This document shows positions 1-7,861 of a stretch of DNA of 7,861 nt, in pieces. The position numbers and the translations under genes are program-made. The DNA lies in IMG/VR virus record IMGVR_UViG_2541047171_000018. One strand, given 5' to 3'. A model generated the notes under the pieces. It was given only the letters and a program-made list of their open reading frames with translations. It was not told the origin of the DNA and did no database searches. Positions within the stretch are counted from its first letter, which is position 1. Each line of letters starts with the position of its first letter. The DNA is from a virus (lineage: Duplodnaviria; Heunggongvirae; Uroviricota; Caudoviricetes).

Positions 1-94
1 GCCTTCGGTATTGACGGCATGGAACCAGGGGATCCAGCTCGCGCAATTAGCAGAGGGGGCGTAGTAATCCTTGTATACCGGAGTGAAGAGAAAA

Positions 95-313
95 ATGAGC
101 AAGATTGACTATCAGGCACTGCGTGAAAAGGCAGAGAAAGCAACTAAAGGAAGCTACATCGTAGGGCATACATCTGTTAACCAGCACGGCAATTTAACAG
201 GAGTTTTTGTTTGCCAAAAATGGAAAGGAGAACCCGGTGGCGTGATTGCAGAATGTCATGTTAACTGCCTGGTTGAAACAGATGCTCAGGCTTATGCAAC
301 GCTGAATTCATAG
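95..313 (+). CDS. hypothetical lambdoid prophage protein (72 aa from ATG 95; ORF track opens at TTG 71)
   Basis: ORF 71..313 in track; internal ATG at 95 (MSKIDYQ...) is preceded by GGAG about 11 nt upstream. GC-normal phage-like composition. Function not recognised. Confidence 0.4.
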   Translation: MSKIDYQALREKAEKATKGSYIVGHTSVNQHGNLTGVFVCQKWKGEPGGVIAECHVNCLVETDAQAYATLNS

Positions 314-333
314 CAGAGGCTAACCCGGCTACC

Positions 334-993
334 GTGCTGGAACTGCTGGATGAACGGGAAAGAAACCAGCAATACATCAAACGCCGCGACCAGGAGAACG
401 AGGAGATTGCGCTTACGGTTGGGAAGCTGAGAGTTGAGCTGGGAGCAGCAGAGAACAACCTTATTGATAGTGAATGCCATGTTGCTGAACTGGAAGAAGC
501 GCTACGCGATAAGCAGGCGTTACTTGAAGCATCAGAGAAGCGCATAGCAGAACTGGAAGCCGAACTCGTAAGCCAAACTTACAAGTTGCCACACACGCAG
601 TTTGAACAGATTGCTAACCTCTACGAAATGCAATTTGATGACGGTCGCACTTGTGCCTTTCACACTGATGCGCAAAAGGCTGAGCAATGGCTTCAGGCGT
701 GCGACGGAAACAGGGTTCAGGAATACGTTAAGCTGGAACGGTTGCAGAATGCGCTGTCTGGCAACTCTCCGGTAACTCCGGATGGTTGGATAAGTTGTAG
801 TGAGCGAATGCCGGATACCAAAACAGCCGTTCTTGTTGCCGTGGAGTTTGACAGGAAAGGTGACTGGCGAATGAAGTGGGCGACTTACATCCCGGGGCAT
901 CCTGACGCTAATGATGGGTGGATAATTCCTGGTGCGTCGTGGAAACCGTCACACTGGATGCCGCTACCAGAACCGCCGCAGGAGGTGAACTGA
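334..993 (+). CDS. DUF551-type lambdoid prophage protein (Ea22-like architecture: charged coiled-coil-like N-terminal part, C-terminal DUF551-like segment)
   Basis: 219-aa ORF; heptad-like charged region (ELEEALRDKQALLEASEKRIAELEAEL); C-terminal segment ending ...SHWMPLPEPP, which I recall as the hallmark of DUF551 in enterobacterial prophages. Start is uncertain: GTG at 334 is the first start codon and the frame is open only from 277. Confidence 0.55.
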   Translation: MLELLDERERNQQYIKRRDQENEEIALTVGKLRVELGAAENNLIDSECHVAELEEALRDKQALLEASEKRIAELEAELVSQTYKLPHTQFEQIANLYEMQFDDGRTCAFHTDAQKAEQWLQACDGNRVQEYVKLERLQNALSGNSPVTPDGWISCSERMPDTKTAVLVAVEFDRKGDWRMKWATYIPGHPDANDGWIIPGASWKPSHWMPLPEPPQEVN

Positions 994-1388
994 TGGAAAA
1001 TGAAGGCGATAATATCATCACACTGGTGCAGCCAAAGCGCGATGAAGAGAAGCTGCTGAACATTACAGTAACTGGCAGAAAAAACTACACACAACAGAGC
1101 TGTAAGCATCGGGCCATTGAGGTTCATGAACAGGATCACGTTATCCTGTGCTTGCAGTGCGGATGTGTTGTGGACCCTTTTCAGTATGTTCTGCGGTGTG
1201 CGAACGATGGTGAGGCTGTGGTGAGAGAGATTAGACAGCTTCATAACAGACACGATCAGCTCCGAGAATCTGTTGCCAGCCTCGAGCGTGAAGAAAAGAA
1301 CACCAAAGCACGGTTGCGGGCAGCAAGAACTGCAATACTGTATGCGGAAAATGACCTTAAAAATATTGAGCAGAAGGTGAATCAATGA
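993..1388 (+). CDS. hypothetical phage protein with Cys cluster (131 aa from ATG 993)
   Basis: ORF track gives 918..1388, but ATG at 993 is preceded by a strong RBS GGAGGTGA (981-988) and overlaps the upstream stop (TGATG), indicating translational coupling. Contains C-x(16)-C-x2-C-x-C; C-terminal charged helical region. Confidence 0.5.
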   Translation: MENEGDNIITLVQPKRDEEKLLNITVTGRKNYTQQSCKHRAIEVHEQDHVILCLQCGCVVDPFQYVLRCANDGEAVVREIRQLHNRHDQLRESVASLEREEKNTKARLRAARTAILYAENDLKNIEQKVNQ

Positions 1389-1468
1389 CCTGGCCTGAAG
1401 CATTCGCAAATGTAGGAACAGTAATGGCGGTGGTGCTGGTTGTGTATTCGATTTGTCGCTGGAGATAA
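1385..1468 (+). CDS. putative small hydrophobic peptide (27 aa, MTWPEAFANVGTVMAVVLVVYSICRWR)
   Basis: ATG at 1385 overlaps the stop of the upstream gene (ATGA); hydrophobic core typical of a single-pass membrane peptide. Below the ORF-track length cut-off; hand-translated. Confidence 0.2.
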   Translation: MTWPEAFANVGTVMAVVLVVYSICRWR

Positions 1469-1756
1469 AAACGGTTTGCGGGAAAAGGAGAGTTAAGTAG
1501 AATTGCTGCGGGTGCTTGAGGCTATCTGCCTCGGGCATGAACACCAACGGCAGATAGAGAAAAACCCACCCGACTATAAATCAAAGTGTATTACCCCCAT
1601 TTGTTGGACGATGAAATGGGTTTAGTTAACTATGTCGGTATCGACATGACTAAAACAACCTTAAATTGCTCGATTAATAGACAAGTAGTTTTGAAAGATT
1701 AAATTTATGCGATCCGGTATTTTCAAGGGATAGCCTTTATGAGGTTATCTTATGGG

Positions 1757-1787
1757 GTTAAAACATCAAGAACAGTTGTGTTATAAT
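1757..1787 (+). promoter_or_regulatory. putative sigma70 promoter for the methyltransferase (extended -10 TGtTATAAT)
   Basis: TG at 1779-1780 and perfect TATAAT at 1782-1787, about 33 nt upstream of ATG 1820; weak -35 candidate TTAAAA at 1757-1762 with a long 19-nt spacer. Sequence-only prediction. Confidence 0.35.
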
Positions 1788-1819
1788 ACATAGAAACTAA
1801 TAAGAGACGTTGCAACTAT

Positions 1820-2971
1820 ATGAATGTAATAGATTTGTTTTCTGGCGTTGGAGGTCTAAGTCTTGGTGCTGCACGTGCTGGATTTGATGTTAAAATGGCA
1901 GTTGAAATTGATCAACATGCTATTAATACTCACGCAATTAATTTTCCAAGAAGTTTGCACGTCCAAGAAGATGTTTCTTTACTAAATGCAGAAATAATTA
2001 AGGGTTTTTTTAAAAACGATATGCCCATAGATGGTATTATTGGCGGTCCTCCGTGCCAAGGATTTAGTTCAATAGGCAAGGGGAATCCTGATGATAGCAG
2101 GAATCAGCTTTACATGCATTTCTACCGTTTAGTATCAGAATTACAGCCATTATTCTTTTTGGCAGAAAATGTTCCAGGTATTATGCAAGAGAAATATTCT
2201 GGCATTAGAAATAAAGCATTTAATTTGGTTAGCGGTGATTATGATATTCTTGATCCCATCAAGGTAAAAGCATCTGATTATGGTGCTCCAACTATTCGAA
2301 CTAGATATTTTTTTATCGGTGTAAAAAAATCATTGAAGCTTGATATTTCAGATGAAGTATTTATGCCTAAAATGATTGATCCGGTTACTGTAAAAGATGC
2401 TTTGTATGGATTACCAGATATTATCGATGCCAATTGGCAATCAGACTCTGAGAGTTGGCGAACAATTAAAAAAGATCGAAAAGGGGGATTTTATGAAAAA
2501 TTATGGGGGCAGATCCCTCGGAATGTTGGTGATACAGAATCGATCGCTAAGTTAAAAAATAATATCATATCTGGATGTACCGGAACATTACATAGCAAAA
2601 TCGTCCAAGAGCGTTATGCTTCCTTATCTTTTGGGGAAACTGATAAAATTTCAAGATCTACAAGATTAGATCCAAATGGTTTTTGCCCGACTTTAAGGGC
2701 GGGAACCGCTAGAGATAAAGGAAGCTTTCAAGCCGTCAGGCCGATCCACCCTTATCATCCAAGAGTGATTACACCAAGAGAAGCTGCTAGATTACAAGGC
2801 TTCCCTGATTGGTTTCGCTTTCATGTAACTAAATGGCATAGTTTCAGACAAATAGGAAATAGCGTGTCACCAATAGTTGCTGAATATATATTAAAGGGGC
2901 TGTACAATTTATTAAATAAAAGAGTACAGCCCGAATATTTAAACCATAATTCTTTGGAAGTTAGGGTATAA
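1820..2971 (+). CDS. DNA (cytosine-5)-methyltransferase (Dcm-type m5C MTase), 383 aa
   Basis: Canonical m5C-MTase motifs readable in order: motif I FSGVGG (1838-1855), motif IV GGPPCQGFS with catalytic Cys (PCQ at 2051-2059), motif VI ENV (2165-2173), motif VIII-like RTRYFFIGV, motif X QIGNSVSP. Weak RBS AAGAGA upstream. Confidence 0.9.
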   Translation: MNVIDLFSGVGGLSLGAARAGFDVKMAVEIDQHAINTHAINFPRSLHVQEDVSLLNAEIIKGFFKNDMPIDGIIGGPPCQGFSSIGKGNPDDSRNQLYMHFYRLVSELQPLFFLAENVPGIMQEKYSGIRNKAFNLVSGDYDILDPIKVKASDYGAPTIRTRYFFIGVKKSLKLDISDEVFMPKMIDPVTVKDALYGLPDIIDANWQSDSESWRTIKKDRKGGFYEKLWGQIPRNVGDTESIAKLKNNIISGCTGTLHSKIVQERYASLSFGETDKISRSTRLDPNGFCPTLRAGTARDKGSFQAVRPIHPYHPRVITPREAARLQGFPDWFRFHVTKWHSFRQIGNSVSPIVAEYILKGLYNLLNKRVQPEYLNHNSLEVRV

Positions 2972-3931
2972 CCTATAGTATTTATAATAGTTATCCCGTT
3001 CATTTTCGTTTAAAGAGAACTCTTCAGCGGCTGCCTGATATGCTTCTTTATCAGGCAGTTTACTATCTAAATTTATCTTTTCTTTAATTGTTAGTGTTGG
3101 TATTGCTATTTCTTGCACGTCTTCCCAATTTGTTGAATAAAATTGCCAGTTAGAAAGGTCGCATGCCTTAGATAACTCTATATATTCTTGTTCTGAGGAG
3201 AAAAAACCTGATATTGTCAACATGGTATGACTGCCATCATTATATTGATTTAAGGATAATGGGTAATACTGAATCTTATCCTTACGTCCTGAAAGACCAC
3301 GTTCTATTGCTGATCTAAAAGCGTTTGTAATAATTCGTATTAAAAGAGCTTTAATCTTACGATCTGAAAGATCTGCATTTGATATCTGAAGATTAAAATC
3401 AAGATACTTTTTCCCAAGCAATGATTTTAATGAATTAATAAAAGCTTCTTTAAAAATATCTAAACTTTCTCCAACTCTACGTTGGTAATAAGAACTAGGA
3501 TTTATGGGGAAGGTGACCTTCAAAATATCAAAAGAGCTTACTTTAGTACTTAGTAAGTGTATATCATCTAGATCCGTTTGTATTTTTTTCGGGGAGGCAT
3601 AGTCTAACCATGTTATTGATGGTTTAGAAAAACTATAATCAAGAATAAAGTCATGAGCTGATATTAGCTTACAATCAATACAATTATAAGGCAAATTATA
3701 TTTTTGTCTGATGTGAGTAGACTCTTGTTCTTCGAGAGAAATCATATCAGAAAGAGCGATACGATTATGCATGATTCTAAAATCTTCAAGCATCGGACCA
3801 CCAAAACCTATATATGTATATTCTTGAATATTTAGTCTTTTGCTTAAGAGGTTTAGGCTTTCGAGAAAAATCTCTCTATCAATAGACTTATTATGCCTTA
3901 AGTGATAGGGAATGTATTGTCCAGACATCAC
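2939..3931 (-). CDS. hypothetical protein, 330 aa, no recognisable motif; second gene of the - strand operon (candidate effector partner of the GHKL ATPase)
   Basis: Long AT-rich ORF. Its start overlaps the stop of the upstream ATPase gene (minus-strand GTGATG: GTG 3931-3929 or ATG 3928-3926, stop TGA 3930-3928), with RBS GAGGTGA immediately upstream. If ATG is used the CDS is 2939..3928. Confidence 0.7.
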   Translation of the reverse strand: MMSGQYIPYHLRHNKSIDREIFLESLNLLSKRLNIQEYTYIGFGGPMLEDFRIMHNRIALSDMISLEEQESTHIRQKYNLPYNCIDCKLISAHDFILDYSFSKPSITWLDYASPKKIQTDLDDIHLLSTKVSSFDILKVTFPINPSSYYQRRVGESLDIFKEAFINSLKSLLGKKYLDFNLQISNADLSDRKIKALLIRIITNAFRSAIERGLSGRKDKIQYYPLSLNQYNDGSHTMLTISGFFSSEQEYIELSKACDLSNWQFYSTNWEDVQEIAIPTLTIKEKINLDSKLPDKEAYQAAAEEFSLNENERDNYYKYYRLYPNFQRIMV

Positions 3932-5319
3932 TTCACCTCTTCAATCACCGTATCAAAGCATTGCATCCCCACATCAGAAGCGCTAGCATCTTCATGTCCA
4001 AAGAAATATTTAGATAAAATTTTAACATCTTCTTTCTCTCTGGTGAAGATTATTCGTACAGTAGAGCTTTTTTTTACTGGGGTAGGCAGCTTAGGTGTAT
4101 ATCGCCACTCATTTTTGTTTCTATTAGGGTTGGACCAGTTATTTTTTTTATCTTCTGGAGTTGATTGTGGGGTAATTTCAAATAAAGATTGAGCTTCATG
4201 TGACTGAGCTGACTTAAGTAATTTTTTCCCTTCTTCAAGATGCTCACCTTTCCACTGATTGGTGAATCGAATAAAATGCATCATCCCTTCAATCATTTTA
4301 TTTCGTACATCATTGTACAATGTAGAACTAAGATCGACACCTCGTTTCGTTGTTGTTATTGGTAATTTTTCTGGGTTTTTACTGGTAAAGCGAACAACCC
4401 CAGAAATTGCTATAAATTGGGTATGAAACCTTGGTACATTAGCAAAGCCCCAACCTGTGAGATGTGTCTTATCACAATATAGAACAACGCGGTCATTGCA
4501 AATGACAGTCCATCCAGCATCATCAGAACTCCTTTTTTCTAAAACATCATCATTGTCATCTTCTAAATTTTTATAGAAGCCAACAACTAAATCGATATCA
4601 ACATCGTCTATTTTAGCTTTATATATGTATGGTTCTATTTTAGAATGATCAGTTATGATGTTAATCGGATTATGTTCAACAACAACTCCATTTAATTCTA
4701 TTTTAAATCCTTTTTGAATAATAAATGACAATGAGTGTTTTATCTGTAAAAAGAGATCAGTAAGATATGTGCTCTCATTAAATTTTTGTGCCACATTAGA
4801 ATGGAGTTTTTTTATCTCTATAGTTGTGCCTGTTGGATTTTTGTTATCATAGTCACTCTCGTGCATCGGTATTTTCCAACCATCACCATCGATCCAATCA
4901 GGTGTTATATCTACAGTGAATGCGCCATCGGGATTATTCGATTGTATTGAGCAATCTCTACCCATTTTAAAAATGGCTCTTTTCATACCAATACCATAGA
5001 CGCCAACGGTGCCTTCATTTTCTTCTTCTTTTTGATGGGGTCGTCCCATTTTAAAAGCATATTCTCGGAAGCTTTTAGGGATACCTCCGCAATTGTCTTC
5101 TATAATAAAGACATCTTTATTAATCGTAAGTTTCGCATAAAATCCTTCATATGGTTTTGAAGTTTTTTTTGTGTCTTTTATTGTACGTAAAGCCCCATCG
5201 ACGCAGTTATCAAGCAGATCAAGTATGGCATCGTTTAAGTCGATATCTCGAGTTAGCATACTTACAAAAAATCTTTTACTAGGACTAAAGTCTGCTGTTG
5301 GAGTCGTGTTCTCAGTCAT
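3928..5319 (-). CDS. GHKL-superfamily ATPase domain protein (MutL/MORC/Hsp90-type Bergerat fold) with about 290-aa uncharacterised C-terminal region, 463 aa
   Basis: Bergerat-fold motifs in correct order in the N-terminal about 170 aa: N-box DLLDNCVDGA (5191-5220), G1 IEDNCGGI (5080-5103), G2 GVYGIGMK (4981-5004), G3 TGTTIEI (4813-4833). RBS GAGAG upstream of ATG 5319. Confidence 0.8.
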   Translation of the reverse strand: MTENTTPTADFSPSKRFFVSMLTRDIDLNDAILDLLDNCVDGALRTIKDTKKTSKPYEGFYAKLTINKDVFIIEDNCGGIPKSFREYAFKMGRPHQKEEENEGTVGVYGIGMKRAIFKMGRDCSIQSNNPDGAFTVDITPDWIDGDGWKIPMHESDYDNKNPTGTTIEIKKLHSNVAQKFNESTYLTDLFLQIKHSLSFIIQKGFKIELNGVVVEHNPINIITDHSKIEPYIYKAKIDDVDIDLVVGFYKNLEDDNDDVLEKRSSDDAGWTVICNDRVVLYCDKTHLTGWGFANVPRFHTQFIAISGVVRFTSKNPEKLPITTTKRGVDLSSTLYNDVRNKMIEGMMHFIRFTNQWKGEHLEEGKKLLKSAQSHEAQSLFEITPQSTPEDKKNNWSNPNRNKNEWRYTPKLPTPVKKSSTVRIIFTREKEDVKILSKYFFGHEDASASDVGMQCFDTVIEEVK

Positions 5320-5371
5320 AATTTACTCTCTATGTGTTTGGGAAAATAAATACCTTAAGTGCAAATTGTTG

Positions 5372-5399
5372 ATTTTAAACGCTTCGCATGCGAAGTCAA
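5372..5399 (-). promoter_or_regulatory. putative sigma70 promoter of the GHKL-ATPase operon with a palindrome in the spacer
   Basis: Minus-strand -35 TTGACT (plus-strand 5394-5399), 16-nt spacer, -10 TAAAAT (plus-strand 5372-5377), about 50 nt upstream of start 5319. Perfect 14-bp palindrome CTTCGCATGCGAAG (5382-5395) occupies the spacer and overlaps the -35 by 2 bp. Confidence 0.4.
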
Positions 5400-5818
5400 C
5401 GATGTTAAGAAAGAAAGTGCATGTGATCTAACAGTATGTTTTTAAAAAAAGATTAGCTTTATGAGAATTCAGGACTGAATCCCGTGAGAGGAAAATAACA
5501 TATGTTATTGTTGCATTGCTGTGTTGTTTGGGATTTGTTGCACCATTCTGGCGTTGGTATATCTAGTTCGTTGTTCATTTTGTTAATTGTACAACAGGCA
5601 GACAACAGAGAGCTTTTAGCCTAGTTAGCTTACGAAATTAAACAACTAAGATTATCGGCGGGGAGTGGTCACCGCTACTCTTTGGCTAGGAGACTTCAAC
5701 GCAACCGCACACAACCAGCTTCGGCGGGTTTTGTTTTTTCCTGGCATTCTGGTTTACAATTTGCGTGCTAGCTTGAACAACTGGCATCTGCTGCACTGCG
5801 CCATCGAGAGATTGAGAA

Positions 5819-6418
5819 ATGGCGCATATACAACTGGTCAAACAAACTTCTTCTGGTTTACTTCTCCCGGCGACGCCGGAGAGTTGCGATTTTCTGCATC
5901 AAATCAAAATAGGTGAGTGGATACACGCAGATTTTAAGCGTGTGCGTAACTACGCATTCCACAAGCGTTTTTTCAAACTCCTGCAACTGGGATTCGATTA
6001 CTGGACTCCGGTCGGTGGGGCGATCACGCCTCGCGAACGAGAACTGCTGTCTGGTTTCGTTGATTACCTGTGCGAATCAGTTGGTCGGGAACACACGCCA
6101 GCCCTGAGTGATGCCGCAGAGCAATACCTTAACACCGTTGCGACTCGTAGAACCCGGGATACGGCGTTGCTAAAGTCGTTTGAGGCTTTCCGCGAGTGGG
6201 TAACCATTCAGGCCGGATTTTACACCGAGCATATTTATCCGGACGGTAGCCGTGGGCGTCGGGCAAAATCCATCGCTTTTGCGAATATGGACGAAGTCGA
6301 GTTTCAGCAGGTTTATAAATCTGTACTGAATGTGCTGTGGAACTGGATTCTGTTCCGTAAATTCTCCTCTCAGGAGGAAGTTGAAAATGTGGCCGCACAA
6401 CTACTGGAGTTTGCGTAA
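5819..6418 (+). CDS. conserved lambdoid prophage nin-region protein (possibly DUF1367 family), 199 aa
   Basis: GC-normal ORF in the expected position upstream of the YbcO-like gene; stop overlaps the next start (TAATG). Family assignment is from memory of prophage nin regions, not verified. Confidence 0.55.
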   Translation: MAHIQLVKQTSSGLLLPATPESCDFLHQIKIGEWIHADFKRVRNYAFHKRFFKLLQLGFDYWTPVGGAITPRERELLSGFVDYLCESVGREHTPALSDAAEQYLNTVATRRTRDTALLKSFEAFREWVTIQAGFYTEHIYPDGSRGRRAKSIAFANMDEVEFQQVYKSVLNVLWNWILFRKFSSQEEVENVAAQLLEFA

Positions 6419-6708
6419 TGGTGAATTTACGTAAAGCGGCTAAAGGCCAGATATGCCAGATCAGAATCCCTGGCTACTGCAATCACAATCCCGAAACCTC
6501 TGTGCTGGCGCATTACAGGCTGGCGGGAACGTGCGGAACAGCGATAAAGCCACACGATATGCAGGCAGCGATTGCCTGTAACTCATGCCACGATTTAATC
6601 GACGGGAGAGTAAAAACCAGCGATTACACCAAAGAAGAATTGCGCCTGATGCATGCAGAAGGTGTTTTTCGCACACAAGAGATCTGGAGAAAGGACGGTT
6701 ATTTATGA
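6418..6708 (+). CDS. YbcO-like (DUF1364) Cys-cluster prophage protein, putative nuclease, 96 aa
   Basis: 96 aa with cysteine pattern C-x7-C ... C-x9-C-x2-C-H-D (CQIRIPGYC ... CNSCHD) and LRKAAKG N-terminus resembling E. coli DLP12 YbcO as I recall it. Coupled to neighbours by overlapping start/stop codons. Confidence 0.6.
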   Translation: MVNLRKAAKGQICQIRIPGYCNHNPETSVLAHYRLAGTCGTAIKPHDMQAAIACNSCHDLIDGRVKTSDYTKEELRLMHAEGVFRTQEIWRKDGYL

Positions 6709-7259
6709 TTTACCCAACGAACACAGGAAAAAGCGGAGAGCACCTTCGTCTCACCACGCTGGAAAGTGTCTGGATTCAGGGGAAACTACGTATGTGGGGG
6801 CGCTGGTCGTATATTGGCGGCGGTAAGACGGGAAATATGTTCAACCAGTTGCTGACCTCTAAAAAGCTGACAAAAACGGCAATTAACGAGGCGCTCCGGA
6901 GGATGAAAAAAGCGGGTCTGGACAAACCTGAACTTGAGGCTTTTTTGCGGGATATGATCAACGGCAATCAAAAAAGCTGGCTGGTGCATTGTACCGATTC
7001 AGAGGCGTTAATAATCGACAGGGTTATTGGTGAAGTACTGGCAGGTTATCCCGGGCTGCTCAATGTTCTGAGTCAGCGTTATGTGGGGCGGGGGATGACT
7101 AAGCGCAAAATGGCTGAACTGCTGAATGATGCACATCCGGAATGGAGTTTAAGAACCTGTGAAAGACGCATTGAGCATTGGCTAAAGGTGGCAGAATTTA
7201 TTTTGTACAAACCAATGGTTATGGCTTTTGGTATAGAGAAAAAAGTTATTGCTTTTTGA
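6705..7259 (+). CDS. putative phage antitermination protein Q-like (184 aa from ATG 6705)
   Basis: ATG 6705 overlaps the upstream stop (ATGA) with RBS AAGGACGG; the ORF track's 6585 start is inside the upstream gene. N-terminal L-R-M-W-G-R-W resembles the L-E-R-W-G-A-W motif of QuuD/phage-82-type Q proteins; position (end of nin region, followed by an intrinsic terminator) fits Q. Function moderately uncertain. Confidence 0.5.
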   Translation: MIYPTNTGKSGEHLRLTTLESVWIQGKLRMWGRWSYIGGGKTGNMFNQLLTSKKLTKTAINEALRRMKKAGLDKPELEAFLRDMINGNQKSWLVHCTDSEALIIDRVIGEVLAGYPGLLNVLSQRYVGRGMTKRKMAELLNDAHPEWSLRTCERRIEHWLKVAEFILYKPMVMAFGIEKKVIAF

Positions 7260-7337
7260 CGTAAAAACTGCTTCAATTCCGGTAAGCTTCGCAAAGCTGT
7301 ACCGCGAGGCGAATAGCAGACATGGACATTTGAAAGA

Positions 7338-7360
7338 GCCCGCTTTTTGCGGGTTTTTTT
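7338..7360 (+). terminator. Rho-independent terminator (candidate tR'-like)
   Basis: GCCCGC-TTTTT-GCGGG stem-loop followed by a run of 7 T (7354-7360), about 80 nt downstream of the Q-like stop. Confidence 0.7.
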
Positions 7361-7483
7361 ATGACTGAAAAACGGCACGGGGCGTTAAACGCGCTGGTGG
7401 TTGCTAATACCGGTCTTTCAACTTGCTGGCTTTTTCGACAAGAGTTATTGGTATGTCACGTTAACCGGAAAAGGGAAAAAGAC

Positions 7484-7681
7484 ATGCTAAAACAGCAGGA
7501 TATGACAGAAACCGCCAGAGTGGTGTTTAATGAATTAAGCGTTACCGAACCGGCGACAGTCGGGGAGATTGCGCAGAATACTTACCTTTCACGCGAACGC
7601 TGCCAGTTAATACTGACCCAGCTGGTTATGGCGGGTCTGGCAGACTATCAGTGCGGTTGTTACAGACGCATTCAGTCCTGA
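7484..7681 (+). CDS. small PapI/FaeA-like winged-helix regulator (65 aa from ATG 7484)
   Basis: ORF track 7361..7681; the internal ATG 7484 has RBS AAGGGA about 7 nt upstream, whereas ATG 7361 directly abuts the terminator T-run. TVGEIAQNTYLSRERCQLILTQLVMAGLADYQ resembles the HTH of PapI/FaeA-type regulators (from memory). Confidence 0.4.
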   Translation: MLKQQDMTETARVVFNELSVTEPATVGEIAQNTYLSRERCQLILTQLVMAGLADYQCGCYRRIQS

Positions 7682-7785
7682 AGGCTTTTTATTTGTGGTA
7701 AATGGGCGGCTGGTGGGGGGGGCGGCACCTGTCAGTCCTTTGCTTATGTGTTGATGATAATTTACCTTTTGGGGCTATAATTGAG

Positions 7786-7842
7786 CTAACCAATTGCTAA
7801 TGAAAGTAAAATTATAATGGTTGTTGTCTGTTCAGTTATCAT
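7786..7842 (-). CDS. possible 18-aa hydrophobic peptide (MITEQTTTIIILLSLAIG)
   Basis: Minus-strand ATG 7842-7840 preceded by GGGGAG with 6-nt spacing; stop TAG at 7788-7786. Very short, hand-translated, and its promoter would lie outside the window. Confidence 0.15.
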   Translation of the reverse strand: MITEQTTTIIILLSLAIG

Positions 7843-7861
7843 GGTTTGCTCCCCAATTAAT

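Follow-up and report, generated by a model that had tools for sequence, protein, structure and literature searches.

The window analysed here is a stretch of viral DNA of 7,861 nucleotides (IMG/VR record IMGVR_UViG_2541047171_000018) carrying an ORF for a GHKL ATPase with a long C-terminal region, and it raises the question of what this region is and what the ATPase does together with its neighbouring genes. A first-pass annotation, made from the sequence, had listed four Bergerat motifs in this ORF, had placed them closest to MutL and MORC proteins and had supposed that the remaining ~290 residues, in which it recognised no motif, might hold a DNA-binding or effector activity. The features on which the following analysis is based are collected in Table 1.

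Table 1. Features of the ATPase locus in the window
Feature	Position	Strand	Details
C5 DNA cytosine methyltransferase (Dcm)	1820..2971	(+)	383 aa
PF20553 (Methyltransf_35) partner gene	2939..3928	(-)	329 aa from ATG 3926-3928
MORC-like GHKL+S5 ATPase ORF	3928..5319	(-)	463 aa; stop codon 3928-3930
GHKL (Bergerat) ATP-binding domain	4774..5319	(-)	aa 1-182
N-box DLLDNCVDGA	5191-5220	(-)	aa 34-43; general-base position is Asp34
G1 EDNCGGI	5080-5100	(-)	aa 74-80
G2 GVYGIGMK	4981-5004	(-)	aa 106-113
G3 TGTTIEI	4813-4833	(-)	aa 163-169
Predicted S5-fold transducer domain	4324..4773	(-)	aa 183-332
MORC signature GWTVICNDRVV	4483-4515	(-)	S5 domain of ATPase
TTTK325RG, candidate phosphate-sensing lysine	4339-4356	(-)	end of S5 domain
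Family-specific C-terminal tail of ATPase	3931..4323	(-)	aa 333-463, 131 aa
Promoter-like TTGACT-16-TAAAAT	5372..5399	(-)	upstream of ATPase gene; consensus match only
Low-GC island with the three genes	1500..5700	(.)	32-38% GC vs 47-52% in flanks

Domain architecture of the ATPase

All four Bergerat motifs are found in the translation of the ORF, with the very sequences first listed. More than 5,430 protein clusters match the ATPase over its full length and at the same size (about 456-490 aa), and Pfam family PF13589 (HATPase_c_3) matches residues 28-132 with an E-value of 2.9e-9, above the Pfam cutoff; these matches mark the gene as genuine and conserved. In an alignment of 40 homologues showing 43-85% identity (alignment A1), the residues D34xxxN38xxD41, D75xxG78G79, G106xxG109xG111xK113 and G164T165 are invariant or nearly so, and the ATPase possesses all four nucleotide-binding motifs of the GHKL superfamily; the N-terminal segment PxKxFFVxMLTRDI of the GHKL domain is also conserved. 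The general-base position of the N-box is an Asp (D34) throughout the family and not the Glu of GHKL proteins, a conservative change that nevertheless counts against the explanation preferred below; ATPase competence is assumed here with Asp at this position. Conservation in A1 is strong well past the ATP-binding domain.

An AlphaFold model was built on A1 (mean pLDDT 82.5, pTM 0.75; low confidence in the ATP-lid, residues 97-108, and in the loop 256-265) and submitted to fold comparison and to Foldseek, the structural approach that the first-pass annotation had proposed; both place the ATPase among GHKL+S5 proteins. The fold comparison returned two figures for each relative, the second being the alignment length: MORC3 (19.6; 278), SMCHD1 (17.3; 288), MORC2 (16.7; 307), TRAP1 and GRP94 (about 15; 257-308), the N-terminal domain of MutL (14.0; 256-261), the ATPase modules of type II topoisomerases (12-13.6; about 240-300) and histidine kinases (about 5-6; about 100). 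Such alignment lengths require the GHKL domain together with a following S5 domain, which makes residues ~183-332 a predicted S5-fold transducer. The assignment rests on predicted structure because a profile of the S5 region alone matched nothing in the PDB. An S5 signature, which had not been evident at first reading, is thus recovered by alignment of the model with S5 transducers, and the protein would have the organisation of the GHKL+S5 subgroup, in which the ATP site receives a basic residue from an S5 transducer placed after the GHKL domain.

Within the GHKL+S5 proteins, Foldseek ranked Hsp90/TRAP1, SMCHD1 and MORC2/3 together (E-values 1e-13 to 1e-11, TM about 0.45-0.5) and cannot tell MORC from Hsp90-type folds for this model. 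Searches of PDB sequences were marginal or uninformative: the whole ATPase found no match, and the family profile found only MORC3 and MORC4 (E-values 0.03-0.15, G1-G2 region only), so that only the fold comparison is informative. According to the text of Iyer, Abhiman & Aravind 2008 (PMC2292703), MORC proteins are defined by the S5 signature GhXhhpXXRhl. This pattern fits residues G269-W-T-V-I-C-N-D-R-V-V of the ATPase, and a regular expression for it finds a match at the equivalent place in 85 of 90 family ORFs. The signature is part of the first of four motifs conserved in the S5 region of A1, DAGWTxxCNDRxV (residues 267-279), TGWG (288-291), HxQF (299-302) and LPxTTTKRGxD (319-329). The phosphate-sensing basic residue of MutL, GyrB and MORC sits at the end of the S5 domain. 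K325 of TTTKRG is invariant and lies at the end of the S5 domain of the ATPase; by analogy, it is a candidate gamma-phosphate sensor.

The likeness to MutL and MORC noticed at the outset is sustained by the predicted GHKL+S5 fold and by the MORC signature, but it does not extend to a canonical MutL, as the profile and the C-terminal domain of MutL are absent: no MutL family of NCBIfam or Pfam matched, and the 463 residues of the ATPase end in an unrelated tail. A safe description of the protein is "GHKL+S5 ATPase, closest to MORC". With high confidence, we regard it as a prokaryotic MORC-type GHKL+S5 ATPase with a family-specific tail.

This tail is modelled as four helices (residues 333-355, 358-369, 429-440 and 447-462) and two short strands, with pLDDT values of 72-93. 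Its motifs in A1 are WK (356-357), an (F/Y)xPxLPxP peptide including LPxP (411-414) and VGxxCF (450-455), and its invariant residues are G345, F349, T353, W356, K357, L411, P412, G451 and F455. The alignment of homologues that had been suggested as a search for invariant acidic, His or Lys residues thus gave a divided answer, with D276, D283, H299 and K325 in the S5 domain but no invariant Asp, Glu or His in the tail, nor the acidic or His cluster expected of a metal-dependent nuclease. In the same way, the impression that the C-terminal region holds no recognisable motif remains true of the tail, which has no match in Pfam, NCBIfam, PADLOC or the PDB, but not of the S5 domain with its MORC signature. 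A tail profile run against 1.84 billion representative proteins gave 328 matches, all of them the extreme C terminus of members of the ATPase family or their fragments; as the tail is absent from other architectures, there is no function to borrow from elsewhere. The tail is basic (pI 8.6; at least 8 in 16 of 18 family tails), in contrast to the acidic core of the ATPase, a property that suits nucleic-acid or partner binding and proves nothing. Co-evolution with the partner protein described below does not discriminate the tail, since GHKL, S5 and tail behave alike (Spearman 0.80-0.83, partial correlations 0.42-0.56).

The three-gene cassette in the window and across genomes

The start codon of the partner gene overlaps the stop codon of the ATPase gene (TGATG) and is preceded by GAGG. 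The product matches PF20553, "Methyltransf_35", with an E-value of 2e-89. Its model (pLDDT 88, pTM 0.87) is a seven-stranded class-I SAM-methyltransferase with a basic helical insert (residues 143-220, pI 10) and a C-terminal helical extension. The SAM-binding motifs of this fold are intact, and invariance or near invariance of their residues G42xG44G45, E49/D50, S65xE67 and D110 argues for real SAM binding. The name "putative O-methyltransferase" given to PF20553 is unsupported; the nearest structures are nucleic-acid base methyltransferases. Among 615 matches to the partner profile in a set of 5.8 billion proteins, the best 120 comprise single-domain proteins only, 307-351 aa long, and with no fusions among these they give no hint of the substrate. 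ATPase and partner have co-evolved tightly (Spearman 0.86) and Dcm less so (0.36), some close ATPase-partner pairs carrying quite different Dcm genes.

The Dcm gene of the window runs towards the partner gene on the opposite strand, the two sharing 33 bp at their 3' ends, and encodes the same protein as PDB entry 3g7u (E-value 1e-254). A scan of the region for promoters and terminators gave a number of sites not above that of shuffled controls. In the mosaic lambdoid prophage of the window, the low-GC island that holds the three genes has early-region genes on one side and DUF1367/DUF1364/DUF1133 genes on the other. It is 100% identical in 172 complete genomes of E. coli, O157:H7 and O111 among them, and is there part of a Rac/CP-933R-like prophage, flanked by replication-region genes and again by DUF1367/DUF1364/DUF1133 genes. 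The full window is not contiguous anywhere in the collection of complete E. coli genomes and is a mosaic. Strain F6294 is the only genome that lacks Dcm; the same deletion removes the C-terminal two-thirds of the partner and leaves the ATPase intact. Being one contiguous deletion, it fits only weakly with the idea that the partner does harm when Dcm is missing.

Homologues of the ATPase were found in at least 585 species, and the neighbourhood was scored with HMMs built here in 80 loci from 80 species of many phyla, including one archaeon. The PF20553 partner is directly downstream of the ATPase in 76 of the 80 loci, usually with a 4-bp overlap. A C5 methyltransferase is present in 72, directly upstream and on the same strand in 54 of these. 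The eight loci in which the pair has no adjacent Dcm are nearly all cyanobacterial; the four loci with ATPase and Dcm and no partner are cyanobacterial as well, and two of them contain an unrelated 270-aa ORF that matches no family. The linkage is thus looser than that of a classical restriction-modification (R-M) pair (8/80 without Dcm, 4/80 without partner). Vsr (PF03852, E-values down to 6e-34) is an optional fourth gene, present in 33 loci and absent from 47 (59%), that either follows the partner directly or overlaps the start codon of the ATPase; the latter arrangement was seen in four loci, with Dcm at the far end. No Vsr gene is present in the window. The partner occurs on 52 viral contigs of IMG/VR, 51 of them with the ATPase, 51 with Dcm and one with Vsr; the triplet is complete on 50, the exceptions being at contig ends.

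The cassette is also common in chromosomes without phage context. One copy lies within a type I R-M operon, with hsdS on one side and hsdR on the other, and a Serratia island carries, beside the pair, HNH_2, a second GHKL+Dcm pair, CdiI and toxin-antitoxin genes. Neither the ATPase nor the partner is covered by a PADLOC model or an NCBIfam family; PADLOC matched only Dcm, and PHROGs gave only the "unknown function" families 20521 and 19983. Our literature search found no experimental paper on the ATPase family or the cassette, and the text of PMC2292703 does not mention the partner PF20553, although the family may be listed in its figures or supplement. Combined, these results indicate that the cassette is widespread and mobile and that Dcm, the ATPase and the PF20553 partner very probably constitute a three-gene functional unit.

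Proposed function and competing explanations

The tie to Dcm, the mobility, the location in prophages and islands, and the placement of bacterial MORC-type ATPases in predicted R-M systems by computational work in 2008 (text of PMC2292703) make a methylation-gated R-M- or BREX-like module the most likely role. The best explanation overall is that the ATPase is the MORC-type clamp subunit of a Dcm-gated, R-M-like cassette, to which we assign a probability of about 0.5; the chances that the cassette serves in defence or addiction are likewise evenly balanced. As in MutL, MORC, Hsp90 and topoisomerase II, ATP binding would dimerise the N-terminal domains, K325 in the S5 domain would sense the gamma-phosphate, and the dimer would form a clamp or matchmaker on DNA. 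The genomic context suggests that the cassette may work as an R-M or BREX-type module in which resident DNA would bear a mark set by Dcm and DNA without this mark would be the target of the ATPase-partner complex, the partner being either a site sensor or a modifying effector. This action could be nuclease-free (entrapment or modification) or could go through Vsr or host nucleases. In the window, the genes are an accessory set ("moron") that a lambdoid prophage carries, and their probable benefit is protection of the lysogen or stabilisation of the element. As in R-M systems, a methyltransferase is tightly linked to the putative restricting components (Dcm in 72/80 species and on 51/52 viral contigs). 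The main gap of the defence reading is that the core cassette contains no recognisable nuclease, Vsr being present in only 33 of 80 loci; the immediate flanks, only modestly enriched in defence-type genes, also count against it. A more specific version, nuclease-free methylation-gated immunity in which a methyltransferase-fold sensor would guide the MORC clamp to DNA without the Dcm mark for entrapment or silencing, is unlikely; if true, it would be a prokaryotic forerunner of the methylation-linked silencing mediated by MORC in eukaryotes.

The strongest rival, although a doubtful one, is that the cassette serves Dcm/Vsr repair and not defence: acting as a portable analogue of MutL, the ATPase would join the partner in helping a cassette-encoded or host Vsr to repair the T:G mismatches arising by deamination at Dcm sites. 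Vsr does belong to the cassette in 33 of 80 species, including the four loci where it overlaps the start codon of the ATPase, and MutL of E. coli, itself a GHKL+S5 protein, interacts with Vsr and stimulates it (work cited in the text of PMC2292703). However, the pair follows Dcm (72/80 species; 51/52 viral contigs) much more closely than it follows Vsr (33/80 species; 1/52 viral contigs), and no Vsr gene occurs in the window. It is also hard to see what a methyltransferase-fold protein would do in nick-directed repair, and wide horizontal spread as a unit better fits a selfish or defence module. The retention of all SAM-binding residues by the partner, its nearest structures among nucleic-acid base methyltransferases, the completeness of the triplet on 50 of 52 viral contigs and its place among the accessory genes of a lambdoid prophage could instead speak for anti-restriction, with Dcm and PF20553 modifying phage or host nucleic acid to the benefit of the phage and the ATPase loading or regulating them. 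We consider this quite improbable, as the cassette is common in chromosomes without phage context, even within a type I R-M operon, and as known anti-restriction methylases need no ATPase.

Two further explanations concern the ATPase itself. That the region after the ATP-binding domain is the nuclease or effector of a single-protein enzyme, as is the C-terminal domain of MutL or as in paraMORC3/Shedu-type fusions, could be argued from the basic tail and from an unusual cluster of invariant polar residues in S5 (C274 N275 D276 R277, D283, TGWG 288-291 and H299xQ301). This effector, initially supposed for the post-ATPase region, has become very unlikely: residues 183-332 align structurally with S5 transducers, the tail has neither invariant Asp, Glu or His, nor a profile or PDB match, nor any occurrence outside the ATPase family, and the separate enzyme-fold partner, to which the ATPase is strictly coupled, points to an effector in trans. 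That the ATPase is a histidine kinase of signal transduction, or a protein chaperone like Hsp90 with no link to DNA, is scarcely credible. The former would draw on a weak NCBIfam match to DpiB (E-value 0.003, 16 bits vs a cutoff of 656) and the latter on the Foldseek ranking of Hsp90/TRAP1 level with MORC; a sensor histidine kinase was rejected, as the ATPase has no DHp domain with a phospho-accepting His joined to a kinase-type catalytic domain.

The ATPase family is large (>5,430 clusters and at least 585 species in many phyla, with one archaeon), and the cassette, in which a MORC-like motor is joined by a second methyltransferase-fold protein in place of a nuclease, is compact and easy to test, with its three genes present in prophages of E. 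coli O157:H7 and O111. If it is a defence system, it would represent a new nuclease-free architecture and a tractable model for the reading of DNA-methylation state by MORC proteins; if it is a repair accessory, it would reveal a MutL-Vsr-type pathway that is portable and moves along with Dcm genes.

Comparison with known systems

In eukaryotes, the structural relatives MORC2, MORC3 and SMCHD1 (PDB 5ix1, 5of9, 6mw7) share only 12-16% identity with the ATPase, which lacks their CW, coiled-coil and hinge domains, has Asp in place of Glu and ends in another C-terminal tail. Compared with MutL acting with Vsr or MutH, it has no C-terminal dimerisation/endonuclease domain and no MutS accompanies it; 59% of loci, like the window, lack Vsr. 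The likeness to BREX, Pgl and DISARM-type systems, by analogy only, lies in a methyltransferase self-mark and in ATPase subunits. As described in passages of PMC11842806, BREX has no dedicated nuclease and its methyltransferase senses unmodified sites. The cassette differs from these systems in having three genes, a C5 and not an N6 methyltransferase, and no homologous components (PADLOC matched only Dcm). N-terminal GHKL ATPases do serve anti-phage systems, namely Shedu VcSduA/paraMORC3 and MzaB (PMC12137116). VcSduA carries a fused DUF4263 PD-(D/E)xK nuclease that the present ATPase lacks, and the match of the ATPase to MzaB is negligible (E-value 0.037, 12 bits vs a cutoff of 850).

The closest comparison is with the prokaryotic MORC and paraMORC proteins as presented in the text of PMC2292703. 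Common to both are the GHKL+S5 module with the S5 motif GhXhhpXXRhl, neighbouring cytosine methylases and Vsr-superfamily endonucleases, and a patchy, laterally transferred distribution. In the same text, paraMORC1 has a conserved extension past S5, as does the ATPase here, co-occurs with a MORC gene and a DNA methylase, or with HNH, and is said to lack the MORC signature. The extension and the Serratia island with its HNH_2 and second GHKL+Dcm genes recall paraMORC1, but the MORC signature is present in our family. In contrast to the systems in that text, the cassette has neither a superfamily-II helicase nor an obligate nuclease, and its obligate neighbour is PF20553. The combination of an obligate methyltransferase-fold partner and a private tail with no helicase or nuclease falls outside the models and papers found, although the 2008 supplement may list the family. 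In conclusion, ATPases of this kind, GHKL+S5 proteins with cytosine methylases and Vsr as neighbours, had already been described computationally in the text of that 2008 work.

Conserved residues of the ATPase and relatives of the Dcm

In the GHKL N-box the catalytic general base is usually Glu, but throughout the family of the MORC-like ATPase this position is an invariant Asp (D34). The S5 domain carries an invariant polar cluster specific to the family, comprising C274, N275, D276 and R277, D283, the TGWG motif at 288-291 and H299xQ301. The C5 DNA methyltransferase of the island (Dcm, window 1820-2971, + strand) and the PDB 3g7u protein are essentially identical (E = 1e-254). Of the relatives of this Dcm, M.HaeIII is the best characterised, the match being confined to the catalytic half.

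Prophage setting of the island

The window consists of mosaic prophage DNA, and its left end shares 99.9% identity with early-region DNA of Stx-converting phages. The right end differs from that of the CP-933R-like arrangement of O157, where genes for tRNA-Ile and tRNA-Arg are present; ARAGORN found no tRNA in the 7,861 nt of the window. Downstream of the island, the DUF1367, DUF1364 and DUF1133-like genes are typical of the late region of lambdoid prophages, which places the island in a region that commonly holds accessory genes of lambdoid phages.

Features of the window and of homologous loci (L numbers)
Feature	Position	Strand	Detail
Prophage-mosaic end, left	window 1-1567
S5 polar-cluster region	window 4417-4518		aa 268-301
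D34 codon	window 5218-5220
Genes downstream of island	window 5819-7259	+
DUF1367 gene	window 5819-6418	+
DUF1364 gene	window 6418-6708	+
DUF1133-like ORF	within window 5819-7259	+
Prophage-mosaic end, right	window 7314-7861
ORF	window 7361-7681		106 aa
Vsr gene examples	L040:8357-8797; L010:5082-5627
ORFs of partner-less loci	L050:8908-9726; L077:6922-7728		~270 aa
Serratia extra genes	L005:10672-13662		second HATPase_c_3 + Dcm
Serratia extra genes	L005:6572-7333		HNH_2

Variation in cassette composition

Among loci L010-L089, which come from 80 species, 33 carry a gene for the Vsr mismatch endonuclease as an optional fourth cassette member; this gene either follows the partner directly or has a 4-bp overlap with the start codon of the ATPase. 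Vsr was found in only one of 52 viral copies of the cassette and is not present in the 7,861-nt window. In four cyanobacterial loci (L038, L050, L075 and L077) the PF20553 partner is missing and Dcm directly follows the ATPase; two of them then have an unrelated ORF of ~270 aa, without a match in Pfam or NCBIfam, which is possibly a substitute effector. The only E. coli genome lacking the Dcm gene is that of O157:H7 F6294 (L142, 3501-5260), in which a single deletion removed Dcm and cut the partner to 123 codons, leaving the ATPase gene intact.

The ATPase is duplicated at two loci (L014:3593-5206 and L060:8945-11204), one carrying two tandem ATPase paralogues and the other a second ATPase-partner pair, inverted, beside the first. 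In the Serratia locus L005, and likewise in L006, the pair is adjoined by a second HATPase_c_3 protein of 608 aa with its own Dcm, and also by a gene for an HNH_2 endonuclease. This layout resembles the paraMORC1/MORC neighbourhoods described by Iyer et al. 2008 (PMC2292703).
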